Sequence record: MN445185.1
DNA length: 64,000 nucleotides
Direction: 5' to 3' (one strand)
Source of the DNA: Escherichia phage vB_EcoM_EC001
Part shown: positions 4,785 through 58,750 of the stretch, piece after piece
Position numbering within the stretch: the stretch's first letter is position 1
Layout of the letters: every line of letters starts with the position of its first letter
Position numbers and translations under genes: made by a program
The notes under the pieces: generated by a model
The model's input: the letters and a program-made list of their open reading frames with translations, nothing else
The model's database searches: none
Told to the model about the DNA's origin: nothing

Positions 4785-4797
4785 TATTCCAAATATA

Positions 4798-4825
4798 CAC
4801 AGATAGATATTACCTAAGTGAGATG
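4798..4825. promoter_or_regulatory. conserved promoter-like motif copy 1 (cacAGATAGATATTACCTAAGTGAGATG)
   Basis: One of 7 dispersed copies; closest match to copy at 58724; sits about 50 nt upstream of ATG 4875. Confidence 0.45.
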
Positions 4826-4874
4826 AGAAAGCCTCATCTGAATTCTCCCAACTCGACTATAAAAGGTATGCATC

Positions 4875-7646: not shown

Positions 7647-7809
7647 TCTAAGGCTCCTATGAAGCTCGTAGGACAACTCATACCATCGGGTAATGCTATC
7701 CCATTACCTGACATTAAAATACGTTTTACGACCTTTATGTGCGCACCATACTCGAAGAAATTTTGCATAGATATTATCTTCGTGAATTATCCTTAAGGAG
7801 CATTTCTCG

Positions 7810-8130
7810 ATGACGCGCATGTTCTTTAATTTCTCTCCAGGGACAAATGAACAGATTGTGCCTGCGGACATGTTACTGTGCGCGATACAAGAAGTTATTT
7901 ATCCCGGCACGCATGAGTTTCCACGTGAGTGGACACGCATTGCCGAAAGTTATTTTGGCACGGAAGCGTGGTTTGTTATTTCGGCGTTGGGCCGAAACCA
8001 TCGCTATCCCTTTCATTACAAAAATGGAGTTGTGCAAACGTGGTCAGAATATACCTCGAACCAGCTGCGGTTCATTCTAGCTTCTGGGGGCCTGTCGATG
8101 CTTCCCAGTACGCTACCGCTCTGCGGATGA
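7810..8130 (+). CDS. hypothetical protein
   Basis: 106-aa ORF with TAAGGAG RBS; stop overlaps next start. Confidence 0.5.
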   Translation: MTRMFFNFSPGTNEQIVPADMLLCAIQEVIYPGTHEFPREWTRIAESYFGTEAWFVISALGRNHRYPFHYKNGVVQTWSEYTSNQLRFILASGGLSMLPSTLPLCG

Positions 8131-8690
8131 GCCAAAAAGAACGCGAGATGTTAACTGTACAACTGTTACACACTGCGCTCGAAGATATCTTTTACTCCGT
8201 TCCGGAAATGCCTAATGCACGTATGGAACCTTTGCTGGAACCTTATACTGACGCTTTTAATCTCACGATGATGTTGGTGGCTGACCAGATCATACTTCCA
8301 CCGAAAACAGTTCCTGTGGAACGTACACACGTTTCCAGTGGCGGTTTGGGTGCCCCGGTTAATAAGACGAAAGAGACCGTAGCGATTTTACGTTCTACCG
8401 AATATCTTATCGGATTGGCATTCGAAGACTGTTACAACAGTTTCCTGGACAGTATCCATGCACTTGTGGAGAATGCTGTGAAGGCCGCCAAACACCCGTT
8501 TAATCGTTATGCGACGATTAAACTGGAACCACACATAACCCGTCGTGGGCAGGTGCAATCTCTGGAGTTACAAATTGGAGAAGACATCAGATTCATCCAC
8601 TACCGCCAATGCTTCCCAAACAAACGATATCGTCCGTCTGGTACTGATCGATCACATCGCCTCGACGGCATACGTCAGGATATTGAATGA
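8127..8690 (+). CDS. hypothetical protein
   Basis: Internal ATG (MSQKEREML) of track ORF 7929..8690; upstream part of that ORF is Cys/Trp-rich and overlaps 7810..8130, so judged non-coding. Confidence 0.5.
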   Translation: MSQKEREMLTVQLLHTALEDIFYSVPEMPNARMEPLLEPYTDAFNLTMMLVADQIILPPKTVPVERTHVSSGGLGAPVNKTKETVAILRSTEYLIGLAFEDCYNSFLDSIHALVENAVKAAKHPFNRYATIKLEPHITRRGQVQSLELQIGEDIRFIHYRQCFPNKRYRPSGTDRSHRLDGIRQDIE

Positions 8691-8703
8691 CCCCAGCGAC
8701 ATC

Positions 8704-9012
8704 ATGTTCAGCATGTATGATGTTAATACGGGGTTGAAGCATATCATTCTCTGTATGCTCGAATACATGATTCCGACATTTACAGAACACGGTACGTGGG
8801 ACGTAGAAACAGTCTCACTGATTGTTAGGTGTTATCGTCCCAGAAGTCATTCGCGGGAAATCCACACCATCGCGTCACACGTTCATCGTGCTATCTGTGA
8901 GGAAATGGGCATTCCTCCAAAAGGGTATCGGTATCATTATAATCAAGCAGACAGAATTCTCCGTTTCATTCCACGTAAGGTAACAGATGTCTATGATGAC
9001 GGTTTATACTGA
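8704..9012 (+). CDS. hypothetical protein (start uncertain)
   Basis: First ATG downstream of the stop of the preceding gene within track ORF 8545..9012; true start may be upstream non-ATG. Confidence 0.4.
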   Translation: MFSMYDVNTGLKHIILCMLEYMIPTFTEHGTWDVETVSLIVRCYRPRSHSREIHTIASHVHRAICEEMGIPPKGYRYHYNQADRILRFIPRKVTDVYDDGLY

Positions 9013-9394
9013 GTTCGTGCGATTGACTTGCCGACTCACCGCACTCGTCAAAGAGAATCTCGGCATCGATTACCAGGATGCTGCGGTAGAGCTTGACGAC
9101 TATATCGAGCAAATTGTTCGGTTGCATGTTCTGCGGAAAAAATATGGCGTTATCGATAGCATGATACGTCAGTTCTTTATGGAGTATGTTCACGATAACC
9201 CAATCATTACCCCAACCACGTCGGCAAAATACTGGGCTCTTTGTCGATTTGAGTTGTTGATACGGGACACCGATTGCATCTGGCAAGCAATCGACGAGGA
9301 CATGACTTTTTTACCACAATCCGACTTTCTCCTCTGGCATGTAGGAGACGGTGTCTGGAAAATGTTAACTACAGGGGTTACTTACAATGATTGA
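8987..9394 (+). CDS. hypothetical protein
   Basis: 135-aa ORF in tightly packed operon-like array. Confidence 0.5.
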   Translation: MSMMTVYTEFVRLTCRLTALVKENLGIDYQDAAVELDDYIEQIVRLHVLRKKYGVIDSMIRQFFMEYVHDNPIITPTTSAKYWALCRFELLIRDTDCIWQAIDEDMTFLPQSDFLLWHVGDGVWKMLTTGVTYND

Positions 9395-9896
9395 GCGATC
9401 TCATTTTTATATCCCAGGCTATCAGTTATTGGCTGGGCCGTTAACGGAGTTTTCGCCAAACGATGTGCTCCGCGAAGTGAATGACGATTTGAACTCGATA
9501 ATCAATACCGCCATGAGCTTCGTGGAACGTGGAACCATTGGTAGTGAGTTAAAGTTTATGATGAACAATACCTTTGGGTTTGTTTCTCGTACACTGAATG
9601 CGCACGGCGTTGTGTTGGAAAATGAGCAAGTAATCACTTACGGCACCGCAATTCAAAACATCGGTCGTGCGTATATGACCGCCGTATCGCAGTCTCCTTA
9701 TTGGTTTACTCACTACGGTCGTTGGGTCGGTGCACAATACACAACGCGCAATCCGGCGGATGTCGAATTCTTATTAGACTATAACGGTGGTGATAAATTC
9801 CCACAGTTTGCCAGCCAGGAAGCGTACGAGCGAATCACCCCACAACTTCTGCCTGTTATCGATTTGCTTATCGGTAATCTCGGAGGTCGTGTATGA
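9387..9896 (+). CDS. hypothetical protein
   Basis: 169-aa ORF overlapping neighbours by a few nt. Confidence 0.55.
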   Translation: MIERSHFYIPGYQLLAGPLTEFSPNDVLREVNDDLNSIINTAMSFVERGTIGSELKFMMNNTFGFVSRTLNAHGVVLENEQVITYGTAIQNIGRAYMTAVSQSPYWFTHYGRWVGAQYTTRNPADVEFLLDYNGGDKFPQFASQEAYERITPQLLPVIDLLIGNLGGRV

Positions 9897-10381
9897 GCGT
9901 TCTGTTTGATGTGGCGGATATTGCGAACCAATATAGCGCGACTCGGTTTTACGAGCATGTTCGTGAAGCGGCATTGCGTGTACTGGAAGCCAGTAACCTG
10001 GAGATCGATGAAACACAGATACGTGATTTTTATCAACGTTTTGCGTTTGCATATATCATCGGTGTGAAAACTCGTGACCCTTCGACGATGGTTGATTTGT
10101 TACAGGAAGACACGCTTGAACCTCTGGGCAATTGGGAGTTGGTGTCCGATGGTCTGTCCGTTGACCAGTTCGCTAAGGAAACGTCTGTCGATACGACGTT
10201 TCTGGCAGCACAAGGTTCGCCCGAACAACATCAAGCCGCCTTCGGCGCTGCGGTAAGTTTGCTGGCCGAAGAGTTAACAAACTTAACTGGTTTTGCTGGA
10301 CTGATAGAGTCGCTGTATCCGGGGCGATATCAAACGTATGTAGGTGATAGTTTTAACGATGTGGTGTTAATCTGCGAATGA
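9893..10381 (+). CDS. hypothetical protein
   Basis: 162-aa ORF, start overlaps previous stop (ATGA). Confidence 0.55.
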   Translation: MSVLFDVADIANQYSATRFYEHVREAALRVLEASNLEIDETQIRDFYQRFAFAYIIGVKTRDPSTMVDLLQEDTLEPLGNWELVSDGLSVDQFAKETSVDTTFLAAQGSPEQHQAAFGAAVSLLAEELTNLTGFAGLIESLYPGRYQTYVGDSFNDVVLICE

Positions 10382-10809
10382 AACTGTACATGACCATAGG
10401 CGAAGTCTTCAAATATGAGTCGTTGTTGGCACGGGCCGAGATTGCTGATACTAGCGAGATCGAGCCCGCTGTCGCTTATTTGTTTCTGGCCAGTTACGCC
10501 GAATTAACGGTTCGTTCTATTGTTAATGGGCTAGGTAAGGGTAAGAACTTTCTTACTTTTATTCCCCCAGACCCTGCGTTGATACTGGAACAGTTGAGCG
10601 GGATGTGGGGTACTGAAAAGGTGCTGCCTCTAAACTGCTACAGCATGAGCAGTGGGATTAAGGATGATGTTCGGTTCTATGAAATCCTTTCCGTGATAGA
10701 ACGTGTGTGGGGCATGGCTGGCTTGACTCCAGAAGACGGAGCAAAAAAGACAAAGGTTTCACTCCTTATGAATGAAATTGGCAACGCACTCATCTGTGTT
10801 GAATGTTAA
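10378..10809 (+). CDS. hypothetical protein
   Basis: 143-aa ORF, ATGA overlap with previous gene. Confidence 0.55.
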   Translation: MKLYMTIGEVFKYESLLARAEIADTSEIEPAVAYLFLASYAELTVRSIVNGLGKGKNFLTFIPPDPALILEQLSGMWGTEKVLPLNCYSMSSGIKDDVRFYEILSVIERVWGMAGLTPEDGAKKTKVSLLMNEIGNALICVEC

Positions 10810-10818
10810 GGAGTACGA

Positions 10819-11418
10819 ATGATCTACAAGGTGATCGCCAACCACTTGATTAATGTGGACTTGGGGGTCGTGGGGTATCTTCCGGACGGTATGCGGTTTT
10901 TGGATTTGGTGGTTGACACCGTAGTCCGCCTACCGCGTATCACCGTGGAGATACCCGTAAAAGAATTGGACCAGGACGAGATGCACGAACTTATACGTGA
11001 AACGCTGACCAGCTACACGTACGAGTTTCGTTGCATGTTACCTCGCACCGACCTTACGTTCTTGCACGACTTCTTTACGTTACTGACTGACGAGTACCGT
11101 CGGTGGAAGTTTAATGTTGCAATGGAAGCCAGCACTGAATCACATTTTAACGGGCTGACACCATTGTTAGATTTAGCGTTGATGTACAAAGAGCAAGACA
11201 GCTCACACTGGGCCACGCTCAAGCACTATACGTTGGATCTAATGGCGACCGCCGTAACGGAGGCAGTTATGGTGCATTATGTTGAGCCGGTGAAGATGTT
11301 CTTAGAGGCGCATAATGGCGCTATCCGTACGTTGGTTCTCAAGGTGGACTTCCCGAAAACACCAGTGACCAATGCTTTGGATATGAGGCTGCTTATTGAT
11401 GTTCCTGAGGAGGAATAA
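10819..11418 (+). CDS. hypothetical protein
   Basis: 199-aa ORF with TAAGGAG RBS. Confidence 0.55.
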   Translation: MIYKVIANHLINVDLGVVGYLPDGMRFLDLVVDTVVRLPRITVEIPVKELDQDEMHELIRETLTSYTYEFRCMLPRTDLTFLHDFFTLLTDEYRRWKFNVAMEASTESHFNGLTPLLDLALMYKEQDSSHWATLKHYTLDLMATAVTEAVMVHYVEPVKMFLEAHNGAIRTLVLKVDFPKTPVTNALDMRLLIDVPEEE

Positions 11419-11828
11419 TGTTCGATTTACGCACACTGGTCGCTGGGCAAAAAGTTAACATTGTTTACGACACCCCTTTGAAAGGGCAAGAGACGCGTGT
11501 AATTATTCTGGCAACCGGCGTTGGCTATGAAATGGCCAAAAGCTATATGGATGTGATGGCGGAGCAGAAGAATATCTACTCATCCATCGTCTCTCAGCCA
11601 GAAGATAACGTGAACAAATACACGTATCTGATTTTCAAAGGTGTTGACGGCAAACCCAAAGTCGCTGCCGATGCCTGGATTCGTGATGTTCAGATTATCG
11701 AAAACACGAAGGTGCGTTTCACCGTCACTCTGGATAACAAACAGGAGATTGACGACCTTAAACGCGCCCTGGCTGCCAATGGTTTCAATGATGTCGATTT
11801 TGAAATCGTTGAGAGCATTGCCGGTTAA
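11418..11828 (+). CDS. hypothetical protein
   Basis: 136-aa ORF, start overlaps previous stop; followed by terminator. Confidence 0.55.
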   Translation: MFDLRTLVAGQKVNIVYDTPLKGQETRVIILATGVGYEMAKSYMDVMAEQKNIYSSIVSQPEDNVNKYTYLIFKGVDGKPKVAADAWIRDVQIIENTKVRFTVTLDNKQEIDDLKRALAANGFNDVDFEIVESIAG

Positions 11829-11834
11829 AGTAAT

Positions 11835-11869
11835 CCCACTCTTCGGAGTGGGTTATTTTTTTTTCTTTT
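11835..11869 (+). terminator. intrinsic terminator (cccactcttcggagtggg plus T-run)
   Basis: Hairpin with TTCG loop and T-run; followed by TTTTTTCACG...TCTTATAG module. Confidence 0.55.
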
Positions 11870-11919
11870 TTCACGTATCCCGCAAGTCTTATAGCTGAGT
11901 AAAAACCAAGGGGCCAGAC

Positions 11920-14211
11920 GTGGACTACAATTCACCATTTCGTCTTAGTCAAGACGAGTATCATCGCGACATTGACGTTATCGATGCGTACTACGAACAA
12001 CTGGCGCTCTACATTCATACCGTCACCAACGGGAAATATTCTTTGGAGTTCTGTCGACAGCAGGTCGAAGAAATGTTCCAACCTGGTGGTGAGTTAGTAC
12101 ACGAATTCCCCGTGTGTAAGATGTGGGTGCGCAATCAAAAGACCGGCGATCGCGAAGAAAAATACACCACGGTAGATAAACTGTTCCGTACAGTGATTGA
12201 TAAGCAGATTATTTCTGCACCGTCGCTGACCTTTTATCTGCCTGAGCACGTCAAGCGCTCTAAGCTTGCTGAATTTACCGCAGAGAACGTGCGTAAGCGT
12301 GCGGTTGTTAAGAAAGAGATGTACGCAGCAGGTGCTGCGGGTAATGAAGTTCTGCGTATTAACAAAAAGAACGAACAGAACGCTGTTAAGACGTTGAACA
12401 ACGGGATGTCGGGTGCATTCTCATCACCGTACACGGTAATCTTTAACCAGTCTTCGCACTCTGTATTGACGTCAACCTGCCGTACGGCTACATCGTTCGG
12501 TAACGCGGGCAACGAACGTCTACTGGGCGGTAATCGTCACTACGACACGCCGTCCCGTGTTATCGACCACTTACTGTCTATTGGTACACTGACTAACTTT
12601 GCTGAGTTCAAGAAGTGTATGGAACTCTATAACCTCCACTACCCAACAGTGGACGAGGTTATGGAAGTGGTTATGTACTCTGCAGAGTTTTACTTCCGTA
12701 ACGACGAAGGGCTGGAGTTCATTCGTCACTACGTCGGTAATTGTAGCCCGCTGGTACGTGCAGCGTTTGTCTACATGGGTGACTTCTACCACCTGGCGAA
12801 ATACAACGATGAATTCATGCGTGGGTTTATCGGTGCGCTGATTGCCGAGGAGATGGAAGACGAGATCACCGATTGGGATGCTGCTGAGCGCTCTATCGAC
12901 GGTGACATGCAGATCATTATCTCGCAGTTCCGTACTGATATCGTGCCGTTAGGTAAGTCGTTCTCTGACGTTAAACTCAAAGACGAAAACACGAACAAAG
13001 CGGAACCGTGGGATAAGCAGGAAAAATACAAAGAGCTGATTCGCTCAGCTGTGTATCTGCAGAAAACCATCGGTAAGTACGCGTGCTTGATTCGTAATAT
13101 CCTGACTACCAAAAACCTGCCGATTAACATTGCCAGGATGCCTGACGTGGTTCGTCGTGTCGGTGTGGTATCTGATACCGACTCCACGATGATGACTGCA
13201 CAGTGGTGGGCACAGTGGTATACCGGTCAACATTACGGTCGTGAAGCTACGCGCGTATCGGATGCGATGATTTATATTGCAACCCAGCACTTACGTCATC
13301 TGATGGCGAGCATGTCGGCGAACATTGGCGTGGCGAAAGAGCGTTTGTTCTTGTACGCAATGAAGAACGAATTTAAGTTCGACTCCTTTGCGTTAACCAC
13401 AAAAGCAAAACACTACTTCTCCATCATCACTGGTCAGGAAGGACAATTGAAGTCCGACCCTGAGTTAGAAGTTAAAGGTGTGTCTTTACGTACGTCAAAC
13501 ATACCGCCTGTGGTCATGAAAGAGTTCAAACGCACGATTAAAGAACTCTGTGAGATTGTAGCGCGCGGCGATAAGATTAAGATTCTGCCTCTGCTGGAAA
13601 AGGTTGCTGCAATTGAGCACGTTGTGGTGGACTCTATTCGTGCTGGTAAAGCAGGCTACCTGAAAACAACCAACGTCAAAGACCGTAGTGCGTACTCTGA
13701 AGATGATGAAAAGAGCTACCACTACCACCGCATGTACAACGCCATCTTTGGACCGAAGTACGGCTACCTGGACGAACCGCCTTATGATGCCGTGAAGCTT
13801 CCGGTAAACCTGGAGAACAAAACAGCCGTTAAAGAGTGGCTGGAAAACATTAAAGACCCGATGATTAAGACCACCGCAACACGGTGGTTCGAAGAAAACA
13901 ACTATCGTACCTATCGTACTCTGATACTGCCAGAGTTCCTGGTGGAAAACTTCGGTATTCCGCCGGAGCTGATTGATGCTGCAGACACACGTCGAAGCGC
14001 ATTCTCCACAGTAGAACCTTACTATCACATTCTGGAATGTCTGGGTGTGTTCATGATGGACAAGAACAGAACTCGTCTGCTTTCGGATTACTACGGCGAA
14101 TCTGTAGACTCGGTCAAGGAAGAATTAGGTAGCGGTGAGTACGTTAAGAAATCTGAACGTGATGGAGAGGAAGAAGATGGGGAAGAAGATGGGGAAGAAG
14201 CGGAGGAGTAA
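11920..14211 (+). CDS. family-B DNA polymerase, C-terminal fragment (fingers, motifs B and C, thumb); acidic C-terminal tail
   Basis: GTG start with AAGGGG RBS. Lys/Arg-rich helix then KTLNNGMSG fits motif B (K-x3-N-x3-G); VVSDTDS fits motif C (DTDS); ends EEEDGEEDGEEAEE. No exonuclease or motif A, which lie in minus-strand ORF 43654..45438. Confidence 0.6.
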   Translation: MDYNSPFRLSQDEYHRDIDVIDAYYEQLALYIHTVTNGKYSLEFCRQQVEEMFQPGGELVHEFPVCKMWVRNQKTGDREEKYTTVDKLFRTVIDKQIISAPSLTFYLPEHVKRSKLAEFTAENVRKRAVVKKEMYAAGAAGNEVLRINKKNEQNAVKTLNNGMSGAFSSPYTVIFNQSSHSVLTSTCRTATSFGNAGNERLLGGNRHYDTPSRVIDHLLSIGTLTNFAEFKKCMELYNLHYPTVDEVMEVVMYSAEFYFRNDEGLEFIRHYVGNCSPLVRAAFVYMGDFYHLAKYNDEFMRGFIGALIAEEMEDEITDWDAAERSIDGDMQIIISQFRTDIVPLGKSFSDVKLKDENTNKAEPWDKQEKYKELIRSAVYLQKTIGKYACLIRNILTTKNLPINIARMPDVVRRVGVVSDTDSTMMTAQWWAQWYTGQHYGREATRVSDAMIYIATQHLRHLMASMSANIGVAKERLFLYAMKNEFKFDSFALTTKAKHYFSIITGQEGQLKSDPELEVKGVSLRTSNIPPVVMKEFKRTIKELCEIVARGDKIKILPLLEKVAAIEHVVVDSIRAGKAGYLKTTNVKDRSAYSEDDEKSYHYHRMYNAIFGPKYGYLDEPPYDAVKLPVNLENKTAVKEWLENIKDPMIKTTATRWFEENNYRTYRTLILPEFLVENFGIPPELIDAADTRRSAFSTVEPYYHILECLGVFMMDKNRTRLLSDYYGESVDSVKEELGSGEYVKKSERDGEEEDGEEDGEEAEE

Positions 14212-14315
14212 GAATAAGTCACGATCGTGTGTACCACAAACAATAACCTTTACGTGGGTGGACCCAGCACCGGTACCGACGGCGTTACTCAATCTTTGGT
14301 TATCTTATCTAAAGG

Positions 14316-14597
14316 ATGAACATTGTGTCGAAACGAAACAGTAAAGCAAATAACTGGGGCTGGCGACAGCTCTATTTGCACAGCCAGCCTAACCTGGTAC
14401 GGCAGCATGTGTTGTCTTTGCCAACGCAGTTTCAAACACTGGCATCGTGTGAAGGTTCAGTGTCGCCACGCGACGATCGTTGGAAAACCATGAAACCGGT
14501 TGTGTCTATTGACAAGCAATTTGACAATCCTCTCGACGGTTGGTTTGCAGCAATAGGCGGTTTAAACGTGCTGGTGGAAGGGTATGTATCGAAATAG
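14316..14597 (+). CDS. hypothetical small protein
   Basis: 93-aa ORF with AAAGGA RBS. Confidence 0.35.
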   Translation: MNIVSKRNSKANNWGWRQLYLHSQPNLVRQHVLSLPTQFQTLASCEGSVSPRDDRWKTMKPVVSIDKQFDNPLDGWFAAIGGLNVLVEGYVSK

Positions 14598-14781
14598 CGG
14601 GAAGTCCACAGAGATGATAACCGCAATCCGTCGCGACCTCGAAGAACGGGGTTGCGTGGATATTGAGTTACATCAGGCAGGCGAAACGGTGCATATCACG
14701 GCATTGGATGCCAAACGGAAACGTAGTATCACTGTGTGGGGTAAACCGTACGCAAGTGATTTCATGGAGACGATAAAATGA
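14584..14781 (+). CDS. hypothetical small protein
   Basis: 65-aa ORF; stop overlaps next start (ATGA). Confidence 0.35.
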   Translation: MYRNSGKSTEMITAIRRDLEERGCVDIELHQAGETVHITALDAKRKRSITVWGKPYASDFMETIK

Positions 14782-15449
14782 GTGATGAACAAGATTTGAA
14801 GTTACCAATGTCAATACCCGAATTGACTTATCTCACCGTCAACCGAGACGATCTCATTAATCAAGTAAGCAAACGCGTAGAGAAAGCCTTTGCTCAGAGT
14901 GGTTATAGTGAAGCGATTCGTAATTTCCGTACACCACTGGCACAATCAGTTACACAACCGCATGGTAAAGGCACTCAGTTATTAGTCGCTGTTCACCCGA
15001 CCTCACCTCTGGCAAAACAGCTGCTTACTGAAATGAACTGGCACTATAAGTGTGTTGAAGAAGTTCAGTCAGCTAATATCGAATGGGCTATGTCGCACAA
15101 GTCTCGCGAAGTGGCGTTAGTCGAATACCTGCGAAAACTACCTTGGGTTGGTGATTCTGCTGTTCTCCGCGATGGCGTAGGTGGGCCGGAAGTCTGGTCA
15201 CCTAATGCGGTGATTGATGTCGATTTCGTGGTTATCGATCCGGGTAGCAATACGCATGTCGTTCGTTTTACGGATGCGAATGTCGCTTCTGTGTGTAAAC
15301 AGTTGGGTATTGCCTACTATCAATGCGGGAAGAAAAAGAAGTCGTCGAGTGTTGAAATTGAGGTGGCGTTTACTGCGGTACAAACCCTAGATCCCGCTGC
15401 GGTTGAACATGCTTTAAACTTCCTCAAGAACCACCCAGACAGCAAATAA
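14778..15449 (+). CDS. hypothetical protein
   Basis: 223-aa ORF ending at bidirectional terminator. Confidence 0.55.
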   Translation: MSDEQDLKLPMSIPELTYLTVNRDDLINQVSKRVEKAFAQSGYSEAIRNFRTPLAQSVTQPHGKGTQLLVAVHPTSPLAKQLLTEMNWHYKCVEEVQSANIEWAMSHKSREVALVEYLRKLPWVGDSAVLRDGVGGPEVWSPNAVIDVDFVVIDPGSNTHVVRFTDANVASVCKQLGIAYYQCGKKKKSSSVEIEVAFTAVQTLDPAAVEHALNFLKNHPDSK

Positions 15450-15457
15450 AAAAAGAA

Positions 15458-15483
15458 CTACACACCGAAGTGTGTAGTTTTTG
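15458..15483. terminator. bidirectional intrinsic terminator (ctacacaccgaagtgtgtag flanked by A-run and T-run)
   Basis: Between convergent genes 14778..15449 (+) and 15532..16599 (-). Confidence 0.5.
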
Positions 15484-15531
15484 TATATAGTATGAATACT
15501 CGAAAGAGTGTTCGCGAGGAGAGAGTAAGTC

Positions 15532-16599
15532 TTATTTTTCTTCTAGCTCTGTCGTCAACGGGATAATCAAATCCCGTTGGATAAAGTTATAGAAGGATTT
15601 GGTCAAACGTGTGAGGACTTTAGAGTCCACATAACGCGCCAAATCAACCAACATCGTACGTTTATGCTTTTCCATATTCCCCTGGTTGTATTGAAGACAA
15701 AACAGTGCCCAGTACCAGTTCACCATGTTCTGGTGCCAGGTGTTCTGCAGTGTTTGACCTGGTTCTCGAAAGACAATCAGTTCCAGTGCTGTGTGGCCTT
15801 CTTCATCAGGGTGTTGGAAGAACAATGGGATGTTGTTTAAGACTTGTCCCGGTAACGGGTTGGCAGCCAGTAGTTTACTACGGATGCCTTTTGCGTGCTT
15901 CACAGCTAAAGCTTGAAGCGGTGGAACAGGAATGACACGTAATGTTTCATCCGGTTCAATCTCTTTCCCAAAGGCTATCGCACGATGTATATTTACAAAG
16001 GCGATATCCATGTAGCTCGGCAACATGCGAGAGATCACATGTCGTTGGAGATACACAGGTGTGGCAATAGGTTCGGTACCGCGACTGTAGTGCTGCTGAC
16101 CTTTGACATATTGCCAAAGCAAAGCAACCAGGTTGATTTCGATCACCGTAACACCTCGGGGCCGTCCGTCACCGAACTTCCAATTGAGGTTGGTATACTC
16201 ATGGTAGAGGTAACGGGCGGGGGTGTAGTCGCGGAACGAAAGGTCTGGATTTACTGGGCGGGCTACGAGAGAGATTACCTCATCTTGGCCCTGGATAAAC
16301 TTGCTATTAAAGATTTGACCGTACTCACCAACAGACGTCAAGCGTAAGGCGTTACCGATCTGAACAAGTTTGCGACGGCAAGCCCATTCGATGTCTTCGT
16401 ACTCTGGTTCACCGGCATAGCCGATGGCAGACAACACCTGTTGCAACAAATGGCCATTACCAGCACTGCGATTAAGCTGTTCGAAGTAGTTGCGTATACG
16501 CTGGCTGTTGTTTTTTACGTGAGCCGCTAATGTTATAGCGGAGGGGTCCGTGCTGTGACCCTTTATGGCCACTTGGTTTAACTCGGCTTGGCTGAACAT
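15532..16599 (-). CDS. hypothetical protein
   Basis: Track ORF 15532..16620 starts at GTG; in-frame ATG at 16599 (MFSQAEL) is preceded by TAAGGAG; 355 aa. Confidence 0.65.
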   Translation of the reverse strand: MFSQAELNQVAIKGHSTDPSAITLAAHVKNNSQRIRNYFEQLNRSAGNGHLLQQVLSAIGYAGEPEYEDIEWACRRKLVQIGNALRLTSVGEYGQIFNSKFIQGQDEVISLVARPVNPDLSFRDYTPARYLYHEYTNLNWKFGDGRPRGVTVIEINLVALLWQYVKGQQHYSRGTEPIATPVYLQRHVISRMLPSYMDIAFVNIHRAIAFGKEIEPDETLRVIPVPPLQALAVKHAKGIRSKLLAANPLPGQVLNNIPLFFQHPDEEGHTALELIVFREPGQTLQNTWHQNMVNWYWALFCLQYNQGNMEKHKRTMLVDLARYVDSKVLTRLTKSFYNFIQRDLIIPLTTELEEK

Positions 16600-16653
16600 G
16601 GCAGACTCCTTAGATTCCACATAGGAAGTCAGTCACAGTCAAAAATATCTCAG

Positions 16654-16667
16654 ATTGATATTATCTA
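16654..16667. promoter_or_regulatory. promoter-like palindromic motif copy 2 (GATTGATATTATCT)
   Basis: In divergent intergenic region between 15532..16599 (-) and 16806..18659 (+). Confidence 0.4.
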
Positions 16668-16747
16668 TGTGACAGTTCCTGAGAAATGTCTGGACTATGT
16701 GCCTTGTAAGTAAGCGACGGCATACTTGCATTCCATGGAATTACAGG

Positions 16748-16760
16748 CAGATATTATCTC
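16748..16760. promoter_or_regulatory. promoter-like palindromic motif copy 3 (GCAGATATTATCT)
   Basis: About 45 nt upstream of ATG 16806. Confidence 0.4.
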
Positions 16761-16805
16761 TGCGAACCGAACTATGATTGCAATCACTATTAAGGAATAT
16801 TTAAA

Positions 16806-18659
16806 ATGGTAAAAATCGTTGACTCTAACAACAACGCTCAGCAGAACAACACTCAGACTCAAGACACCGCACCACTGGGCGGTCTGGGCAACGAGACTGT
16901 AAAAGTGCAAACTGCTGTGCCGGGTACTTCTACTGTCAGCCAATTCGATAACGCATTTGGCATCCGCAACATCAGCACCTATGCAATGCACTTCACCAAC
17001 CTCCTGGATGAGCTGAAGAAAAGCAACGAATACCTCAACGCATTCCGCTGGGGCACCATCGTCGGCGTGGGTAACGAAATGGGTTCCGCGGCGTATGTCG
17101 CAGGCCAATGGCAGGGCCACTGGCTGTATGGTATCATCTTCTTTGAACGCGGTCAGTCTCTGCGTCTGAAAGAAACTACCAACAACGGCCAGGAAGACTA
17201 CTACACCATCACTGAACTGTTCAACAAAGACGTGCTGGCAGTAGTACAGAAAAACATCATGGAAGCGCATGGTCTGACCAATGCGAACTTCATGATCATC
17301 AACTCCGTACCAGACCTGGGTAAAGTTCTGGATGCTGAGTGGGCACGTACACTGATGGGTCAGATGATGATGGGCATCTTCGGTCGTATCGCAGGCTACC
17401 TGGGTACGCTGAACCTGCGTAAGCATGACCGTTATCAGGCCGCAGTAATGCCGCTGGAAGATGGTGCGGTTGTTGATGCTAACGGCCACGCACAGCGTGC
17501 TGATTTCGCAATCACCGTTGAGCACAGCCCAAGCAACGTAACCGATGCCACTCCGACTCTGCTGGACACCAATCAGGTACAGGTGTATCCGCGTGTATCC
17601 GGTACCGGTTTCGTCAATATGCGTTTCACCGGTCAGAAGCCTGTCGTTAACGGCGTCTACGACCTGAAACAGCTGCAGGCTGAAATCGTAGTAAGTCTGA
17701 TCGATTCTCAAACTGAAGGTGCAATGGCACCGTATGAACGTCAACTGCTGCTGCTGGCTGCATTTGCAGAAATCGCGGCAATCGGTGGCTGGCGTGACCT
17801 GTTTGTGAAACGTCTGAACAAACAAGATCGCAAGTTCTCCCGTGTGGCAGAATACCTGTCCTGGGGTGCTGACGCTCGTCCTGATGTATCCAAAATCGAC
17901 GGTAGCCGTGAAGCTATCGAAGGTTGCCTGGATATGTTCGCACCGCGTGAAGCAGCACTGGTAGTTAGCCATCGTGCCGGTAACGGCCTGGGTGGTCTGT
18001 CTACTTTGCTGTCTGAAATTGCGGTCGGTTACGACAACTCTCTGAAACAGCTGCTCGCTATTCTGAATTCCATGTCCCCGCGTGATCAGAACGGCGAAGT
18101 TGTTGCAGCGACCAGCTTCACTGCAGTATTTGCTTCTGCACTGAAAGCACAGCTGGGCGATGCCTTCAATGGTACCATCCATTGCAGCCACATCGTGAAA
18201 GCAGCCGTACCGACTGTTTCCGGTGTTTACACCGGTACTGCACAGAAACGTAGCTTCCAGGATATGGACCTGATTTCCGTTGTTACCAAACTGGGTGATA
18301 ACGCGAACGACGTCTATAGCTACCTGAACGCACAGTCCTACAGCCACCGTGAACTGAACGAGCGTCAACAGCGTATCTACATGCTGAAACTGGCCGCTTC
18401 TCTGTTCGCATCCAAAGCACCGCAAGCTACCGGTGAATCTCTGGATATGGCTATCAACCCGATCTTCGGTAAATGCCTGCTGGACTTCGTCCGTAACAAC
18501 TGCACCTGGTCTATGACTGGTGTAAATGCCTACAACACGATGGCGACCTCTCTGTTCTTCAACAACGGTGGGGAAGACTTCACGCTGTCTGGCAACGGCC
18601 TGTCTGCAAGCGGTTCCGATTTCGGTCTGGGCGTGACTCTGAGCAACTTCAAACTGTAA
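16806..18659 (+). CDS. abundant protein with host-like codon bias; candidate phage-nucleus shell protein (chimallin-like), function unconfirmed
   Basis: 617-aa ORF with strong preference for ctg/ccg/ggt/cgt/aac codons, two promoter-like motifs upstream, TAAGGAA RBS, low-complexity N-terminal tail, immediately upstream of the RNAP beta-prime N-terminal gene. Confidence is for the CDS, not the function. Confidence 0.7.
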   Translation: MVKIVDSNNNAQQNNTQTQDTAPLGGLGNETVKVQTAVPGTSTVSQFDNAFGIRNISTYAMHFTNLLDELKKSNEYLNAFRWGTIVGVGNEMGSAAYVAGQWQGHWLYGIIFFERGQSLRLKETTNNGQEDYYTITELFNKDVLAVVQKNIMEAHGLTNANFMIINSVPDLGKVLDAEWARTLMGQMMMGIFGRIAGYLGTLNLRKHDRYQAAVMPLEDGAVVDANGHAQRADFAITVEHSPSNVTDATPTLLDTNQVQVYPRVSGTGFVNMRFTGQKPVVNGVYDLKQLQAEIVVSLIDSQTEGAMAPYERQLLLLAAFAEIAAIGGWRDLFVKRLNKQDRKFSRVAEYLSWGADARPDVSKIDGSREAIEGCLDMFAPREAALVVSHRAGNGLGGLSTLLSEIAVGYDNSLKQLLAILNSMSPRDQNGEVVAATSFTAVFASALKAQLGDAFNGTIHCSHIVKAAVPTVSGVYTGTAQKRSFQDMDLISVVTKLGDNANDVYSYLNAQSYSHRELNERQQRIYMLKLAASLFASKAPQATGESLDMAINPIFGKCLLDFVRNNCTWSMTGVNAYNTMATSLFFNNGGEDFTLSGNGLSASGSDFGLGVTLSNFKL

Positions 18660-18687
18660 TCGAATCGGTTACTGAGTAGTTAGGAAA

Positions 18688-18727
18688 CGGACGGGGGCTA
18701 ACGCCTCCGTCCTTCCCTCTTTTTTTG
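18688..18727 (+). terminator. intrinsic terminator (ggacgggggctaacgcctccgtcc plus T-run)
   Basis: GC-rich hairpin followed by T-run after 16806..18659. Confidence 0.55.
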
Positions 18728-18741
18728 TTGAGGTTGACAGT

Positions 18742-20076
18742 GTGAGAAAGGTACCAAAATTCTACGGAATATCCGGCCGGTTGGTTAGTCAGGATAACTA
18801 TTTGTCCGATTTGCAAATAGAAGCTGCTGCCAAAGGTATTAAACCACCCACTATTATTAACGATGTCGCCGTTAACGGGGATGCGATCGAGGTTGCTGAA
18901 CTTATCGATCGCATGGTACAGAACAGAATCGTTGACGAAGAACTGAACTCTGCACCGATTTGTAGTTTGGATTGTCCGGCACCGATCGCGCATCGTTACA
19001 ATCTCGGTTGTAAGTGTCCGACGTGTGGCTATGTTGTAACTGAACATCGAATTGAATCCGATGTCTGGTTACGTGCACCTGATGAAATGGGTAACTTCGT
19101 CAACCCACGATTCTGGGCAATGTTCAATGCTTTCTTTAATAGCAAGTTGAAGAAGTTTGAACGTAACAAGGTCACTATCGAACGCGGTAATGACTTGATG
19201 ATGTGGATGATTGACCCGTATTACCGTATAGAAGAACCAGACGGTAAACGCGCACATGCTGTGAAACGTGTATTGGAAGAACATGGTTTCGTTCGTGGCT
19301 TGCGCAATCTGGTTGATAACCACGTTAGTATCTTTAACATCCTTACCACGCCAGAAGCCTGGAAGGAAATCTTCGCACCTAATCGGCATAACGCCGCTGA
19401 AGGTGAACGCTTACGTTTACAATGGAAGGAGCTATTCGAAACGCAACGACACGCATTCTTCCCAAGACACTTACCGCTAATCTCCTCTAAACTTATCGTT
19501 ACTGAGGAAGGTCGTCGTGGTGTCATGGTAGACCCAGTGTTCACGGGTGCTATTGATGCGGTGAAAAATATCGCGTTGCTCTATACGCGGCGTAAAGCGA
19601 TCGAACCACGTTTTCTGATTAGTCGTGCTTTGAAAGCGAACCGTCAGTTAACGTACTTCCACATGGACTTCCGTCGTGAGTCTATGGAAGGTAAACCGGG
19701 TGACTATCGTGCGAAATTGGGTTCTACCCACATCCCGTTCGGTGGTCGTGCAACCATCTCACCTATCTCAGAACCACATGATGCCTGGAAGTTAAAAGCA
19801 CCATGGCGTTGGATGGTTGGGTTGATGTCGACCCACATCGAGAACAAACTGCTACGACGCGGTTATTCGTCACGGCAGTGTGAACGTATCGTTGCGAAAG
19901 CGGCAATGCAGTATGACCCGCTTGTAGATGAAATCTTTAAAGAACTGATTCGTGAATCCCCAGGCGGTCTTGGGATCATGGTCATACCGCTACGTAACCC
20001 AACGCTGGTACAGTTGTCTATTCAAACGCTGTACATCGATGAAGTTGTTACCGATGTTAACCAGTGTTCGCTGCGT
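18742..20076 (+). CDS. multisubunit RNA polymerase beta-prime-like subunit, N-terminal fragment, exon 1 (3-prime boundary approximate)
   Basis: GTG start. Zinc-ribbon CSLDCPAPIAHRYNLGCKCPTCG; LRNPTLVQLSIQ...CSL resembles RQPTLHRLGIQ...HPLVC just upstream of the catalytic loop. ORF continues 58 codons into the intron to stop at 20250. Confidence 0.65.
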
Positions 20077-20453
20077 ATCTCTGACCGTGTGATCAAGATG
20101 GCTAACGGTTCGAAAAGAGCCCCATCGGACGGGAAACCTCTGATGCGTATTCTCCTGAAATGCTGGGAAACCCTAAAGCGTATCTACCAGAAATGGGGAC
20201 GAAAGTCTGAAACAACAGATACGATGGCCTACGCTAAACAATACTGCTAACGGTTGTGATAATGGGTAATCAGCAGCGAAGCCTCGTGAGAGGAACGTTC
20301 AACGACTATCGCTGAAATGCGAGTAGGGGTCCCAGTGGACTTCGAAGTGGGAGAACACCTAAGGCGATAGCTATGGTGAAGATATAGTCTGTGCCTTATC
20401 GAGAGATAAGGAGGGTGTCTTAGCACACCTGCTGTATACGGAAACGGTATACG
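20077..20453 (+). ncRNA. group I self-splicing intron (no internal ORF), boundaries +/- about 10 nt
   Basis: Conserved core elements R (GTTCAACGACTA, 20297..20308) and S (AAGATATAGTC, 20379..20389) with complementary gacta/tagtc. Frame changes between flanking coding segments; beta-prime homology stops at CSLR and resumes at DKQDFDGDQ. Confidence 0.75.
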
Positions 20454-20693
20454 GTGGACAAACAGGATTTCGATGGCGACCAGTTCCAGGTACGTTTACC
20501 AGTCGATGAAACTGAGATGAAGTTGGCGCTCCAATTCCGTCCAGATAACGGCTTTATGTCTTCTACTGATGTGGACCGCGTAGAACACGGCATGGTTTTA
20601 CATAACGAGCTAATCAGTATGCAGAACCAGTTCCTTATTGAAGCAGATGAGGATGATGAAGAAGGCATTCCGTTGGAAGCGGTGATGGGCTAA
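20454..20693 (+). CDS. RNA polymerase beta-prime-like N-terminal fragment, exon 2 (catalytic DFDGDQ loop)
   Basis: Begins VDKQDFDGDQFQVRLPVDETEMKLA, matching [23 protein letters not shown]; ends 79 codons later. Confidence 0.65.
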   Translation: MDKQDFDGDQFQVRLPVDETEMKLALQFRPDNGFMSSTDVDRVEHGMVLHNELISMQNQFLIEADEDDEEGIPLEAVMG

Positions 20694-25115: not shown

Positions 25116-25200
25116 GAAACAAAATAAAAAATACGCCCAAGGGAAACCTTGGGCTATTAACGCTTATGCGTGGTCCTGCAACACACACTGTAAGAAGATT

Positions 25201-25221
25201 GAGATAGATATTATCTCAGTG
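25201..25221. promoter_or_regulatory. promoter-like palindromic motif copy 4 (GAGATAGATATTATCTCAGTG)
   Basis: About 30 nt upstream of ATG 25251. Confidence 0.45.
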
Positions 25222-25250
25222 CAATCGACTATTCGCGGAGTTCAACTATA

Positions 25251-26885
25251 ATGAAAATTACGAAGATTAAAGACCGGATGACAATCGAGCATCACGGTCA
25301 AGAGGTCTCATTTATTGGCTTACGTTATCGGAAGGATAACAACGCACCCGACTACATCACTGTTAAAGGTAAACAGATTGCACGCGACAACATTCTCTTC
25401 ATGGAATTACAACGCGTGTGGGATTATTTAACGCCAGACGAACAAGATGAACTGTTCATGGCGTATCTGATGCTGGACGAGCTGGCAAACGAATCGACGG
25501 AAACGCAGCGTAAGCACATGCCGAAGATTGTGCAGACGATTGCGAAGTTCCACAAGGCCGAAGTGTATCGTAAGCTGTATCCCATCGATAAGCTGTGGAT
25601 TCCGCAGAACATGGAAGATACGCACGATGAAATGAACAGTAATTATCCGGAAGCGATGACGTACATTCGTCCGGACTATTACGAGTTGTTGATACTGGTC
25701 CTGATGATTAAACCGTATATTCCGGTGTTCCTTACCATGGGGACGTTCCCGATAGGTAAGAACTTGCCAATCGAAACACATCGGAAAATGGTGTACAATC
25801 TGACATACTGTCTGGAGATGCTTCAAGACACAGAAGTCATGTCTTTACCTGCTATTCCGAAACTGCGTGGGTTCCTACAGACAGTGATGGAAAAGGTAGA
25901 AAAAGAACTGGCAAACAAAGGTACGAACAGCACCAGTTTGTCGGTACTGGCTACGGTGCGGGGCTATGGCACGGATATGATGGAAGATTATATCCTGGCG
26001 TATGCTATTATTAAATTGTTGGCTGTCCGTGAAGTCGGTGGTGAATTACCGGTTGAAATCATGGTTAACAACAATATCGTCACCGGCATGTATTTTCTGG
26101 TTAAACAAGAGATTGAAACAGGTTTTGCAAACAAAATCTCTAACCAGCCGGTGCTGTTGAAAGCGCATCCAGAAAGTGTGGTATTCAATGGCGAAAAGGG
26201 CAAGATAAACGCCATGGATTTGGTGCAGGCACGTTCTCCTGCCCAGATGAAAGAATACGTCCGTACCGAGTACGTATTTAAAGAATACCGCTCTTTCTTG
26301 AAAACAATGCGTCTGGATAATGCCGCTCCAGCAGATGTTAAGTTATTGATTGATTCGCAACTGGCAACACACGACGGTCCTGTCTATACATTGCACGAAT
26401 GGTTAGTCGCATTAGCACTCCATCGTAGCGCGCATTATAAGACGTATACTGAATGTGGACCAGAAGCGTTTCGCTACGGTATGGCGTTGGCGCAGGCAAC
26501 TTATCTCAATTATGGAATGTATGACGTTGCGCAACTGTTAAGTTGCAATATGGTGCGTTCTGAGATGTCTGCCGGTTATGCAGCCGATCCAATTCGATCT
26601 GAACTCAAAGCAGATTTAGATAGATATTATCTTCAGGAGTATCGCAACCCGCGTAATCTCGAACCGCAATCTACACCACGGGAATCACTGACCTTGTTAC
26701 ACAAGGATCACATCAACCCGTATCTGTTCCATCTCAGGGCTACACCAGAAGCAGCTGCGCTGCTGAAGTGTGAGACGGATCAGCCAAACTATATACCTCA
26801 CTTGTCACTGCACAATAGCCTGGCGGAGTTTATGGTGTTGAATGCACGTCGCAAGTTAGAAGAAGTTGAATGGTTTAATTCTTAA
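25251..26885 (+). CDS. hypothetical protein
   Basis: 544-aa ORF downstream of promoter-like motif. Confidence 0.65.
   Translation: MKITKIKDRMTIEHHGQEVSFIGLRYRKDNNAPDYITVKGKQIARDNILFMELQRVWDYLTPDEQDELFMAYLMLDELANESTETQRKHMPKIVQTIAKFHKAEVYRKLYPIDKLWIPQNMEDTHDEMNSNYPEAMTYIRPDYYELLILVLMIKPYIPVFLTMGTFPIGKNLPIETHRKMVYNLTYCLEMLQDTEVMSLPAIPKLRGFLQTVMEKVEKELANKGTNSTSLSVLATVRGYGTDMMEDYILAYAIIKLLAVREVGGELPVEIMVNNNIVTGMYFLVKQEIETGFANKISNQPVLLKAHPESVVFNGEKGKINAMDLVQARSPAQMKEYVRTEYVFKEYRSFLKTMRLDNAAPADVKLLIDSQLATHDGPVYTLHEWLVALALHRSAHYKTYTECGPEAFRYGMALAQATYLNYGMYDVAQLLSCNMVRSEMSAGYAADPIRSELKADLDRYYLQEYRNPRNLEPQSTPRESLTLLHKDHINPYLFHLRATPEAAALLKCETDQPNYIPHLSLHNSLAEFMVLNARRKLEEVEWFNS
26612..26636. promoter_or_regulatory. 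promoter-like motif copy 5, internal to the 3-prime end of CDS 25251..26885
   Basis: AGATTTAGATAGATATTATCTTCAGG about 260 nt upstream of the next gene. Confidence 0.35.
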
Positions 26886-26897: not shown

Positions 26898-28598
26898 ATG
26901 CAGCTTGTAAATCTACTGATGTATCCGGTCTACGATGTTCCAGAGCAAGTTCGTCGCCGCATCGGCTTTAACGCATCGACGGGTGCACTGGATGACTTAG
27001 CAGCAGCGGTTGAACTGGGCGGGGAAAAAGCTGTGGGAACACAGCAGTATCAAGAAGCGTTATCTGCCATCGTGGGCTTCGATGGCACCCAGAATGGTTT
27101 TGAGCGTCCATTCATCAACGTGTCCGATGATGACAATCGTCCTGTACAGTTCCAATGGGAATCACGTGATACCGGTATCTTTAACTTCGTGGCGGTGTTT
27201 ATTGCTAAACCTCTGAATGCAACACGCACTCAGGAAACGCAATACATCGTCTCCGGTTATACCAGTCAGGCAGAAACCAGCCTGGGTAGCCTGCTGCCGG
27301 ACGATATGGTGTTGTACATTAACGACATCTACGGCTTACAGGCAACGTATACACACGATGCCCTGGGCGGCAAAACATTGAACCCAGACTCATTCCGTCT
27401 ACTGGATAACTACGTTTTATCGAAAGCGCTGTCTGTTGAAGGTCAAACAGAAAGTACGGTAGATATCATTTCGATCGCGAAAGCAGCGGACATGGTAAAA
27501 CGTATTGAAATGAATAGCGGTGAGAAGTTCGTCCCAACGAGCGACTCTGTGCTATCCGCAACCAGTAGCTCTGCACCACAGTTGATGGTATCCCAACTCC
27601 AGCGTCCAGAAAACTACGTATCTGCAATCAGTAATGCGTATCTGGCAAGCTCTGGGGTAGATACCGAACTCGGTAGCGTGGAAAGCTTCTTTGCAGGTAA
27701 TAACTCCATCGGCGTTGAATCTGAATTGAAGCAGCGTGGTGTTATCCGTAACTACAGCAACCACGAACTGATTGCTGCGATGCGTCAAGCACTCCAGAAC
27801 GGGATGTCTGATGTATCTGGCGGTTGGAAAGCAACCAGTAAGGCGACGTTCCGTTTGGCTGATTTGCGTAATGCGATTGTCAACCCAATGCGGTTGGATG
27901 AATGTATCCGTGAATCGCTGGCGCTGGCAAGTCGCCGTGGGTTGGGTGCAGGGCTGGTTAACCAAACCGACCACTGGATTGGACGTAATGGCTTCTCCAC
28001 GCAGGGTAGTCTAGTTGCGTATGATCTGGCTATGTCTATCGGGCCGATTATGTCACGTAACCTGATTGGTGAAGTGAGCTTTGTCTTTGATAACCGCAAC
28101 ACAGATATCATGATAGAGCCTACGCTGGAAGTTATTCCTAACTCAGTCAGCAGCATCACGCACCATCAGTTACCTGCTGCATTAGGTCGTCGTTTCTTGC
28201 AGAACATGAAAGAAGCGATGGTTCAGGTTACTAAACATAACCATATTCGCTGCCACATGCTGGTCACCGCATTGTTGGGGACCGTTACTCGTATTGAAAT
28301 CCGTGTCGACGACGAACCGCTGGAATATTACACCTACGCGTCGTTTATGCAATTCCGTCTCCATACCGGCAACACCACCGATCTCAAATACGTTGGTGAG
28401 CTGGCACAGAACACCGCAACGCTGCTGAAAGCCGTGGAAGAAGGTTATACAGAATTCGAGAAAGGCCAAGGCCGGGGTCGAATGCTATCTAACATTCCAA
28501 CTAACACAGGTGGCTTAGATCCTCTTGGAGGTCTTGACCTGGGTGGTGGCTTAGGCGGTATAGGCGGAAACGGACTCGGCAACGGTCTCATTGATTAA
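26898..28598 (+). CDS. hypothetical protein with glycine-rich repetitive C-terminal tail
   Basis: 566-aa ORF, TAAGGAG RBS; tail GGLDPLGGLDLGGGLGGIGGNGLGNGLID. Confidence 0.65.
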   Translation: MQLVNLLMYPVYDVPEQVRRRIGFNASTGALDDLAAAVELGGEKAVGTQQYQEALSAIVGFDGTQNGFERPFINVSDDDNRPVQFQWESRDTGIFNFVAVFIAKPLNATRTQETQYIVSGYTSQAETSLGSLLPDDMVLYINDIYGLQATYTHDALGGKTLNPDSFRLLDNYVLSKALSVEGQTESTVDIISIAKAADMVKRIEMNSGEKFVPTSDSVLSATSSSAPQLMVSQLQRPENYVSAISNAYLASSGVDTELGSVESFFAGNNSIGVESELKQRGVIRNYSNHELIAAMRQALQNGMSDVSGGWKATSKATFRLADLRNAIVNPMRLDECIRESLALASRRGLGAGLVNQTDHWIGRNGFSTQGSLVAYDLAMSIGPIMSRNLIGEVSFVFDNRNTDIMIEPTLEVIPNSVSSITHHQLPAALGRRFLQNMKEAMVQVTKHNHIRCHMLVTALLGTVTRIEIRVDDEPLEYYTYASFMQFRLHTGNTTDLKYVGELAQNTATLLKAVEEGYTEFEKGQGRGRMLSNIPTNTGGLDPLGGLDLGGGLGGIGGNGLGNGLID

Positions 28599-30339: not shown

Positions 30340-30360
30340 CGTCTCTCCTTAAAATAAAAC

Positions 30361-30383
30361 AGATAGATATTATCTTACCGAGG
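30361..30383. promoter_or_regulatory. promoter-like palindromic motif copy 6 (AGATAGATATTATCTTACCGAGG)
   Basis: Single copy between divergent genes 30016..30339 (-) and 30406..32643 (+). Confidence 0.45.
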
Positions 30384-30405
30384 TAACCAAAAGGAGCATT
30401 TACGA

Positions 30406-58703: not shown

Positions 58704-58723
58704 GTCTCGGATTAGAAAAGATT

Positions 58724-58750
58724 TCAGATATATATTACCTAGGTGAGATT
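58724..58750. promoter_or_regulatory. promoter-like motif copy 7 (CAGATATATATTACCTAGGTGAGATTG)
   Basis: Nearly identical to copy 1 over TATTACCTA(A/G)GTGAGAT; about 40 nt upstream of ATG 58789. Confidence 0.45.

Follow-up and report, generated by a model that had tools for sequence, protein, structure and literature searches.

The repeated motif in this phage DNA is real, and we interpret its copies as early promoters of an SPN3US-like chimallivirus that are read by the virion RNA polymerase (vRNAP), a reading to which we assign a probability of about 0.85. In the window, i.e., the whole stretch of 64,000 nt that was analyzed, eight true copies were located (starts at 4801, 7765, 16652, 16745, 25202, 26618, 30361 and 58726), all of them on the plus strand. 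The original prediction had listed seven; each of these proved genuine, with coordinates off by at most 6 nt, and the eighth copy at 7765 had been overlooked. It had also called the motif promoter-like and placed it upstream of gene starts, a description that is borne out by intergenic and co-oriented sites, by a layout shared with AR9 and phiKZ and by a matrix of the sites that cross-finds those of phiKZ.

The window corresponds to the initial 64 kb of a Seoulvirus genome, i.e., of a nucleus-forming jumbo phage that resembles SPN3US, and is collinear with Escherichia phage vB_EcoM_Lh1B. A total of 41 phage records match window positions 15000-19000; vB_EcoM_Lh1B (Seoulvirus, 240,200 bp) gives the best match, at identical coordinates, and SPN3US and its relatives come next. 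Since the window differs from Lh1B 1-64000 by 1371 substitutions and zero indels across 64 kb, the annotation and the whole genome of Lh1B were used as reference. The substitution rate amounts to 2.1% in coding and 2.9% in intergenic DNA, and a total absence of indels over 64 kb is unusual for two natural isolates.

Phages of the SPN3US type are nucleus-forming chimalliviruses with two split multisubunit RNAPs, a packaged vRNAP and an unpackaged nvRNAP (PMC5694885; PMC13282480), and the SPN3US virion RNAP subunits gp42, 218, 240, 241 and 244 have been detected by mass spectrometry (PMC5694885). Two split multisubunit RNAPs are encoded here as well: homologues of PHIKZ055, 068, 071, 074 and 123 were found, and a gp42-type virion gene is located at 41795-43090. 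Synteny between phiKZ 40-90 kb and the window covers the DNA polymerase, a minus-strand head protein, chimallin gp54, nvRNAP gp55, SbcD, gp68, gp71-74 and the helicase.

Copy number and anatomy of the element

Allowing up to three mismatches, the 15-mer AGATAGATATTATCT matched the window ten times against 1.18 expected matches, a number that none of 100 shuffles reached, and the 18-mer ATATTACCTAGGTGAGAT matched twice (0.01 expected). A match at 22932 (three mismatches, inside the SbcD gene) was dismissed as chance, as it fails the position-weight matrix, and a minus-strand match at 16656-16670 as the reverse-strand shadow of the partly palindromic site 16652. With a matrix derived from the eight window sites, 14 further sites were located in the rest of Lh1B, already separated from background. 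The refined matrix spans 38 nt and was trained on the very sites that it then scores, so absolute scores are inflated. On the whole Lh1B genome, where we ran the genome-wide count that the original prediction had proposed, it returned 23 sites scoring at least 25.8; the next-best plus-strand score was 9.7 and the best minus-strand score 18.4, the latter coming from shadows only. All 23 sites are located on the plus strand and point at the next gene, and 21 of them are intergenic in a genome of which 5.76% is intergenic (P = 2e-24).

The full element consists of an A/T-rich tract, CAGATAGATATTAYCT and NN-GTGAG, and its alignment reads A/T-rich tract, C-AGATA-G/T-AT-A/G-TTA-Y-C-T, NN, G-T/G-G-A-G. 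Across 39 sites (23 from Lh1B and 16 from three relatives and phiKZ), A7, T8, T10, A12 and G20 are invariant, while the core A7 T8 R9 T10 T11 A12 Y13 is at least nearly so and resembles TATATTAC or ATATATTAT, the highly conserved AT-rich early element of phiKZ-related phages, which measures about 10-13 nt and is centered around -10. G20 is present in 39 of 39 sites, exactly 6 nt after TTAY. With G20 taken as +1, predicted leaders measure 26-135 nt with a median of 53 nt, apart from the outlying sites 74671 and 26618 with 233 and 261 nt. In nine leaders, a hairpin can be folded whose first base lies at +1 to +3, and about 40% of the predicted transcripts open with one at +1 or +2. From copy to copy, the stem sequence changes and the pairing is kept (GAGAGTT/AACTCTC, GAGCGTT/AACGCTT, AGATGAG/CTCATCT), which lends the predicted start some independent support. 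This start-site hairpin probably stabilizes the mRNA. The arrangement is reminiscent of the T4-type 'promoter-early stem-loop' (PeSL) cassettes attributed to Arbiol et al. 2010, in which an early promoter is likewise directly followed by a stem-loop and the unit is repeated before small accessory genes; the PeSL promoters are reportedly host sigma-70 promoters.

Between the 15-mer and the start codon lie 31-60 nt at the sites 4801, 16745, 25202, 30361 and 58726, 30 nt at 7765 and 140 nt at 16652. Of the six copies for which a spacing of 30 to 65 nt to the start codon had been put forward, five agree with it, the exception being 16652. The further claim of one copy inside the 3' part of a gene was correct, as 26618 falls within the CDS 25251-26885. 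Copies had also been described as often lying just after a terminator. Here, strong GC-rich tetraloop hairpins are indeed found upstream of about 10 sites, among them those 32-38 nt upstream of 4801 (4743-4762), 25202 (25135-25154) and 58726 (about 58660-58691). However, a strict rule, which demands a T-rich tail at most 8 nt from the hairpin, flagged just 3 of 23 sites in comparison to 18 of 300 random positions; the pattern thus rests on the tetraloop hairpins and does not extend to canonical intrinsic terminators.

Genes downstream of the predicted promoters

Two copies are found in tandem in the intergenic region 16600-16805, upstream of the gene for chimallin, the major protein of the phage-nucleus shell. 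The features of this region and of the transcription unit that follows are:

16618..16627, minus strand: invariant block CACATAGGAA, reading TTCCTATGTG on the minus strand; invariant in six genomes, last base 18 nt upstream of the ATG of 15532-16599
16640..16673, plus strand: P1, predicted distal chmA early promoter with A/T-rich tract, AGATTGATATTATCT and ATGTGA; start G16671, leader of 135 nt, score 42.7
16714..16721, plus strand: invariant block GCGACGGC at the tip of the hairpin 16705-16730, inside the P1 leader between P1 and P2; invariant in six genomes
16733..16766, plus strand: P2, predicted proximal chmA early promoter with AGGCAGATATTATCT and CTGCGA; start G16764, leader of 42 nt, score 26.8
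16806..18659, plus strand: chmA, chimallin (phage-nucleus shell); 65% identity to Asesino gp039, syntenic with PHIKZ054
18742..20250, plus strand: PHIKZ055 homologue that follows chmA in its unit, N-terminal beta' subunit of the nvRNAP (7OGP chain A, E 1.5e-32)

Asesino gp039 has been identified as ChmA by GFP localization (PMC11724907). A sequence search against the PDB did not find chimallin, and the assignment is made via Asesino gp039 and synteny. Both P1 and P2 are kept in all six genomes compared, which cover four to five genera. The hairpin between them (16705-16730, -11.4 kcal/mol) lies 14 nt upstream of P2, and at four of its predicted pairs both partners differ among the six genomes; an attenuator, a processing site or a protein-binding site are all possible. 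By eye, an imperfect inverted repeat is seen around P1 (GGAAC..GTCAC ... GTGAC..GTTCC), which the repeat search did not report.

On the other side of this intergenic region, the divergent gene 15532-16599 encodes a homologue of the phiKZ head protein PHIKZ052. TATG is the phiKZ late motif (PMC7598289), and the TTCCTATGTG block, which contains it, is a candidate late-type (TATG) promoter, separate from the early element. Genome-wide, TATGA occurs 41 times in intergenic DNA against 12.4 expected occurrences; such sites may represent late promoters, whose prediction in phages of this kind is described as difficult.

In Lh1B and the window, the annotation divides the PHIKZ055-like gene into two pieces (18742-20250 and 20454-20693, with about 200 nt between them, 20250-20454). 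In SPAsTU, Asesino and Caitlin it is a single gene of about 1600 nt, and in phiKZ an HNH endonuclease comes next after gp55. The two pieces could reflect an intron, an insertion or an annotation split.

The remaining sites of the window, together with the polymerase genes to which they relate, are:

4789..4822, plus strand: predicted early promoter with TTACCT core; start G4820, score 44.3, 5'-terminal hairpin 4821-4839 (-8.7 kcal/mol)
7753..7786, plus strand: predicted early promoter, the copy overlooked before; start G7784, score 36.8
25190..25223, plus strand: predicted early promoter of the PHIKZ068-like gene; start G25221, 30-nt leader beginning GCAATCGAC, score 33.2, kept in relatives
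25251..26885, plus strand: fifth, sigma-like nvRNAP subunit, PHIKZ068 homologue; 7OGP chain B, E 3e-6, syntenic with phiKZ
26606..26639, plus strand: motif copy within the 3' part of the PHIKZ068-like CDS, encoding D-R-Y-Y; predicted start G26637, score 32.9
30349..30382, plus strand: predicted early promoter of the nvRNAP beta/beta' gene pair; start G30380, 26-nt leader, score 34.5, kept in relatives
30406-32643 and 32643-34748, plus strand: nvRNAP genes, PHIKZ071 and PHIKZ074 homologues; 7OGP chain C, E 1.8e-29, and chain D, E 8.9e-39
58714..58747, plus strand: predicted early promoter of the CAGATATATATTACCTAGGTGAG type; start G58745, score 42.1, 5'-terminal hairpin 58745-58764 (-6.7 kcal/mol), exact 21-mer present in 15 IMG/VR contigs
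Lh1B 75939-77717: PHIKZ123 homologue (nvRNAP)

All five nvRNAP genes are located 26-2263 nt downstream of a predicted start, an arrangement that was reached in 15 of 20000 random placements. For the vRNAP genes, the nearest upstream site is 11-22 kb away, and when the 23 Lh1B sites were checked against the annotation, none was found directly upstream of a vRNAP gene or of a structural gene block. The site at 7753..7786 heads the plus-strand block 7810-15449, which includes a DNA polymerase fragment gene. Site 173531 is followed by a gene for a putative endolysin, not an obvious early function. Pfam and PHROGs returned no function for most genes downstream of the sites. The suggestion that the copies serve highly expressed or RNAP genes stands as far as the RNAP genes and chimallin, as major nuclear-shell protein, are concerned; it does not extend to the expression level of the other genes.

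The copy inside the PHIKZ068-like gene is, from its sequence and position, a candidate promoter for the PHIKZ069-like gene at 26898-28598. An alignment of four genomes from three genera shows its codons GAT AGA TAT TAT unchanged (P about 0.008), suggesting selection at the DNA level for an internal promoter. In Huxley and Kwan, too, a matching site is found inside the orthologous gene.

Two classes of sites can be described. Sites of the TATATATTACYTAGGTGAG class stand before accessory genes and combine a start-site hairpin, an AATCGACYATTA box and a ribosome-binding site, while those of the GATAGATATTATCT class stand before core genes, i.e., chimallin, nvRNAP and the block with the DNA polymerase fragment gene. 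It is a rather doubtful idea, which we put forward tentatively, that the two are not equivalent, with TATATATTACYTAGGTGAG forming a self-contained and possibly mobile immediate-early cassette, GATAGATATTATCT being separately controlled, and the injected polymerase thereby serving two tiers of early expression. Candidate control features of the GATAGATATTATCT class would be the tandem P1/P2 arrangement, the invariant GCGACGGC hairpin and the copy inside the CDS of the sigma-like subunit.

The AATCGACYATTA box itself lies just ahead of the ribosome-binding site, at a distance of 20-31 nt from the start codon that follows (28-31 nt in most cases). In the window, it occurs at 25223-25234 and 59578-59589 and, in degenerate form, at 4851-4862 and 58767-58778; in Lh1B, it occurs at 67886, 96917, 116710, 164337, 166166, 185338, 222859 and 223738. 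It frequently trails the hairpin of an early promoter and is found without an early promoter, too. In the window alone and with two mismatches allowed, its count was not significant (12 matches, 9.25 expected). The box may be an element of the leader or of translation, or it may belong to a further class of promoters. A second recurrent motif of intergenic plus-strand DNA, TTTTTT(C)ACG, often lies 40-66 nt upstream of start codons (window 92, 5867, 6326 and 11867, with a variant at 3623; Lh1B 74820, 98701, 160252, 167415 and 171647). Fifteen of its 20 pattern matches, representing about nine distinct sites, are intergenic, compared to 1.2 expected; the motif may be a mere terminator tail followed by ACG, or another promoter class.

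Relation to known promoters and alternative readings

Early promoters of phiKZ were reportedly described by Ceyssens in 2014. Later studies place the number of vRNAP-read early promoters of phiKZ at 28-32 sites (Wicke 2020, PMC8244752; Putzeys 2024, PMC10914365). Applied to phiKZ 40-90 kb, the Lh1B matrix found exactly three sites, with scores of 21.6-27.4 and a next-best score of 12.6. They are located upstream of PHIKZ054 (chimallin), PHIKZ058.1 and PHIKZ068 (e.g., AATTTCAGATTTATATTACTAAGGTG), and PHIKZ054 has a mapped primary start that is tied to the early motif (PMC8244752). The original prediction had pointed to a likeness to the TATATTAC-like early promoter of phiKZ-like phages; the three cross-detected sites and the mapped early start of PHIKZ054 bear this likeness out.

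The elements of both phages share an ...AGAT-NN-ATATTAC... core, an upstream A/T-rich tract and a G 6 nt downstream; they precede chimallin and gp68-type genes in a syntenic block and occur at comparable density (23 sites per 240 kb here, about 30 per 280 kb in phiKZ). The A/T-rich tract of the Lh1B sites is a loose parallel to a T-rich tract that early promoters of phiKZ are reported to have upstream of position -19 (PMC8244752). The two differ in that most sites here read GATATTATC where phiKZ has TATATTAC, in the two tandem copies before the chimallin gene of the present phage, and in the starts, which are predicted from sequence here but mapped in phiKZ. The AR9 early promoter is AAATATATATTAT-(6N)-G+1 (Lavysh 2017, PMC5312081), and the mapped early starts of phiKZ and phiR1-37 are likewise found 6 nt downstream of the conserved element (PMC5312081). 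The AR9 core ATATATTA-Y and the 6-nt spacing to the G start are nearly identical to those of the present element, whereas the flanking consensus differs, as do the uracil-containing DNA of AR9, its lack of a phage nucleus and its Bacillus host.

For the infection cycle, we infer the following scheme. The multisubunit vRNAP would enter the cell together with the DNA and recognize an asymmetric element of ~35 bp, made up of an A/T-rich tract, the core (C)AGAT-A/T-G/T-AT-A/G-TTA-Y-C and the start region NN-G-T/G-G-A. Initiation would take place at the invariant G, 6 nt after TTAY. First-wave transcripts would then cover chimallin, all five nvRNAP subunits and many small accessory genes, along with the block 7810-15449, in which the DNA-polymerase fragment gene is located, and the nvRNAP would next take over the middle and late genes. 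This corresponds to the known circuit from injected vRNAP through nvRNAP to late genes, in which the nvRNAP genes are early in phiKZ and AR9 (PMC7598289).

The sites might instead be promoters of the nvRNAP, and hence belong to the middle rather than the early class. Sequence alone cannot identify the phage polymerase that binds, and in phiKZ a secondary start of the middle type exists for chimallin as well (PMC8244752). However, the motif heads the genes of all five nvRNAP subunits, which cannot rely solely on their own product, and it fits the phiKZ early element, not the middle (TACT plus an A-rich run) or late (TATG) one. We hold this reading to be very unlikely.

An equally slim chance is given to host sigma-70 promoters, in which the E. 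coli or Salmonella RNAP would read GATATTAT as a -10 box. The core TATTAT matches TATAAT at five of six positions, so that some use by the host polymerase is compatible with the sequence, and the upstream A/T-rich tract could serve as an UP-like element. Two phiKZ-related Ralstonia phages have furthermore been reported to be rifampicin-sensitive (PMC5312081). Nevertheless, a -35/-10 scan of 16-31 kb called none of the five motif sites there and produced 20 hits against 19.5 expected, i.e., chance level. Sigma-70 promoters carry a -35 hexamer 16-18 nt upstream of the -10 hexamer; the site alignment has no conserved -35, and the conserved AGAT, G20 and GTGAG are not sigma-70 determinants. The phiKZ counterpart, moreover, belongs to an early class that is transcribed without host RNAP (PMC7598289); rifampicin independence has been shown for phiKZ and AR9, which are outside the present clade.

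We regard it as exceedingly unlikely that the sites are palindromic operators of a dimeric regulator, or bidirectional promoters that also serve divergent genes. The original prediction had drawn attention to the inverted-repeat arms AGATA/TATCT and to copies between divergent genes, and both can be seen: the commonest variant contains AGATA-T-TATCT, a perfect 5+1+5 dyad, copies adjoin divergent genes in the intergenic regions 16600-16805 (two copies), 30340-30405 and 7647-7809, and 5 of the 23 sites adjoin a divergently transcribed gene. The dyad, however, is not a conserved property. It is complete in 10 of 23 Lh1B sites and in 4 of the 16 found in relatives and phiKZ; the base at position 15 is free to vary in relatives, the pairs 6-14 and 7-13 are complementary in 61-81% across both site sets, and the seven best-conserved TTACYT sites break it. 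The flanks are asymmetric, with the A/T-rich tract upstream and GTGAG downstream. In reverse orientation, sites score at most 18.4 in comparison to at least 25.8 for true sites and are devoid of the G20/GTGAG start region, and at least two of the divergent neighbors are virion-protein genes, one of them, the head-protein gene, with its own conserved TATG block. Taken together, these points argue against a bidirectional element or a dimeric regulator site and indicate that the dyad is incidental, a by-product of GATATTATC standing in place of TATATTAC. Promoters of the N4 type, in which an inverted repeat extrudes a 5-7 bp stem with a 3-nt loop for a single-subunit vRNAP, were rejected as well, because AGATA-T-TATCT leaves a 1-nt loop and therefore cannot form a hairpin, and because the polymerase here is of the multisubunit type.

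Conservation and significance of the proposed early promoters

The sites before the chimallin (P1 and P2), gp68-like and RNAP beta genes are kept in SPAsTU, Asesino, Caitlin, Huxley and Kwan, while their flanks diverge, and orthologous sites span the genera Seoulvirus, Erskinevirus, Machinavirus and Wellingtonvirus. The motif cores of the window and those of Lh1B differ at none of 176 positions, compared to an intergenic rate of 2.85% (P = 0.006). In IMG/VR, the exact 21-mer AGATATATATTACYTAGGTGA occurs 41 times in 15 contigs, nearly all of them 220-246 kb long, a size typical of jumbo phages, with two to six copies per contig that lie on a single strand within each contig. The motif sites appear to be under purifying selection.

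Lavysh et al. 2016 (Virology) reportedly made the same kind of prediction, with a conserved motif ahead of presumed early operons. Within the literature searched, no transcription starts, timing, polymerase dependence, transcriptome or explicit SPN3US-type consensus were found for Seoulvirus. The element is not a new kind of promoter, as the kind is already known from phiKZ; its Seoulvirus form is new or at most little documented.

Read as vRNAP early promoters, the sites provide a testable early-transcription map for the SPN3US/Seoulvirus group, with 23 predicted promoters and starts and with units that encode, among others, chimallin and the complete second polymerase. Among the nucleus-forming jumbo phages of enteric bacteria, SPN3US serves as the genetic model. 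The map may be of use for the annotation of metagenomic jumbo-phage contigs, for early-expression cassettes in engineered phages and for the biochemistry of the poorly characterized vRNAP. It would also mean that the core and the spacing of the vRNAP promoter have been preserved from the Pseudomonas phage phiKZ to phages of enterobacteria.
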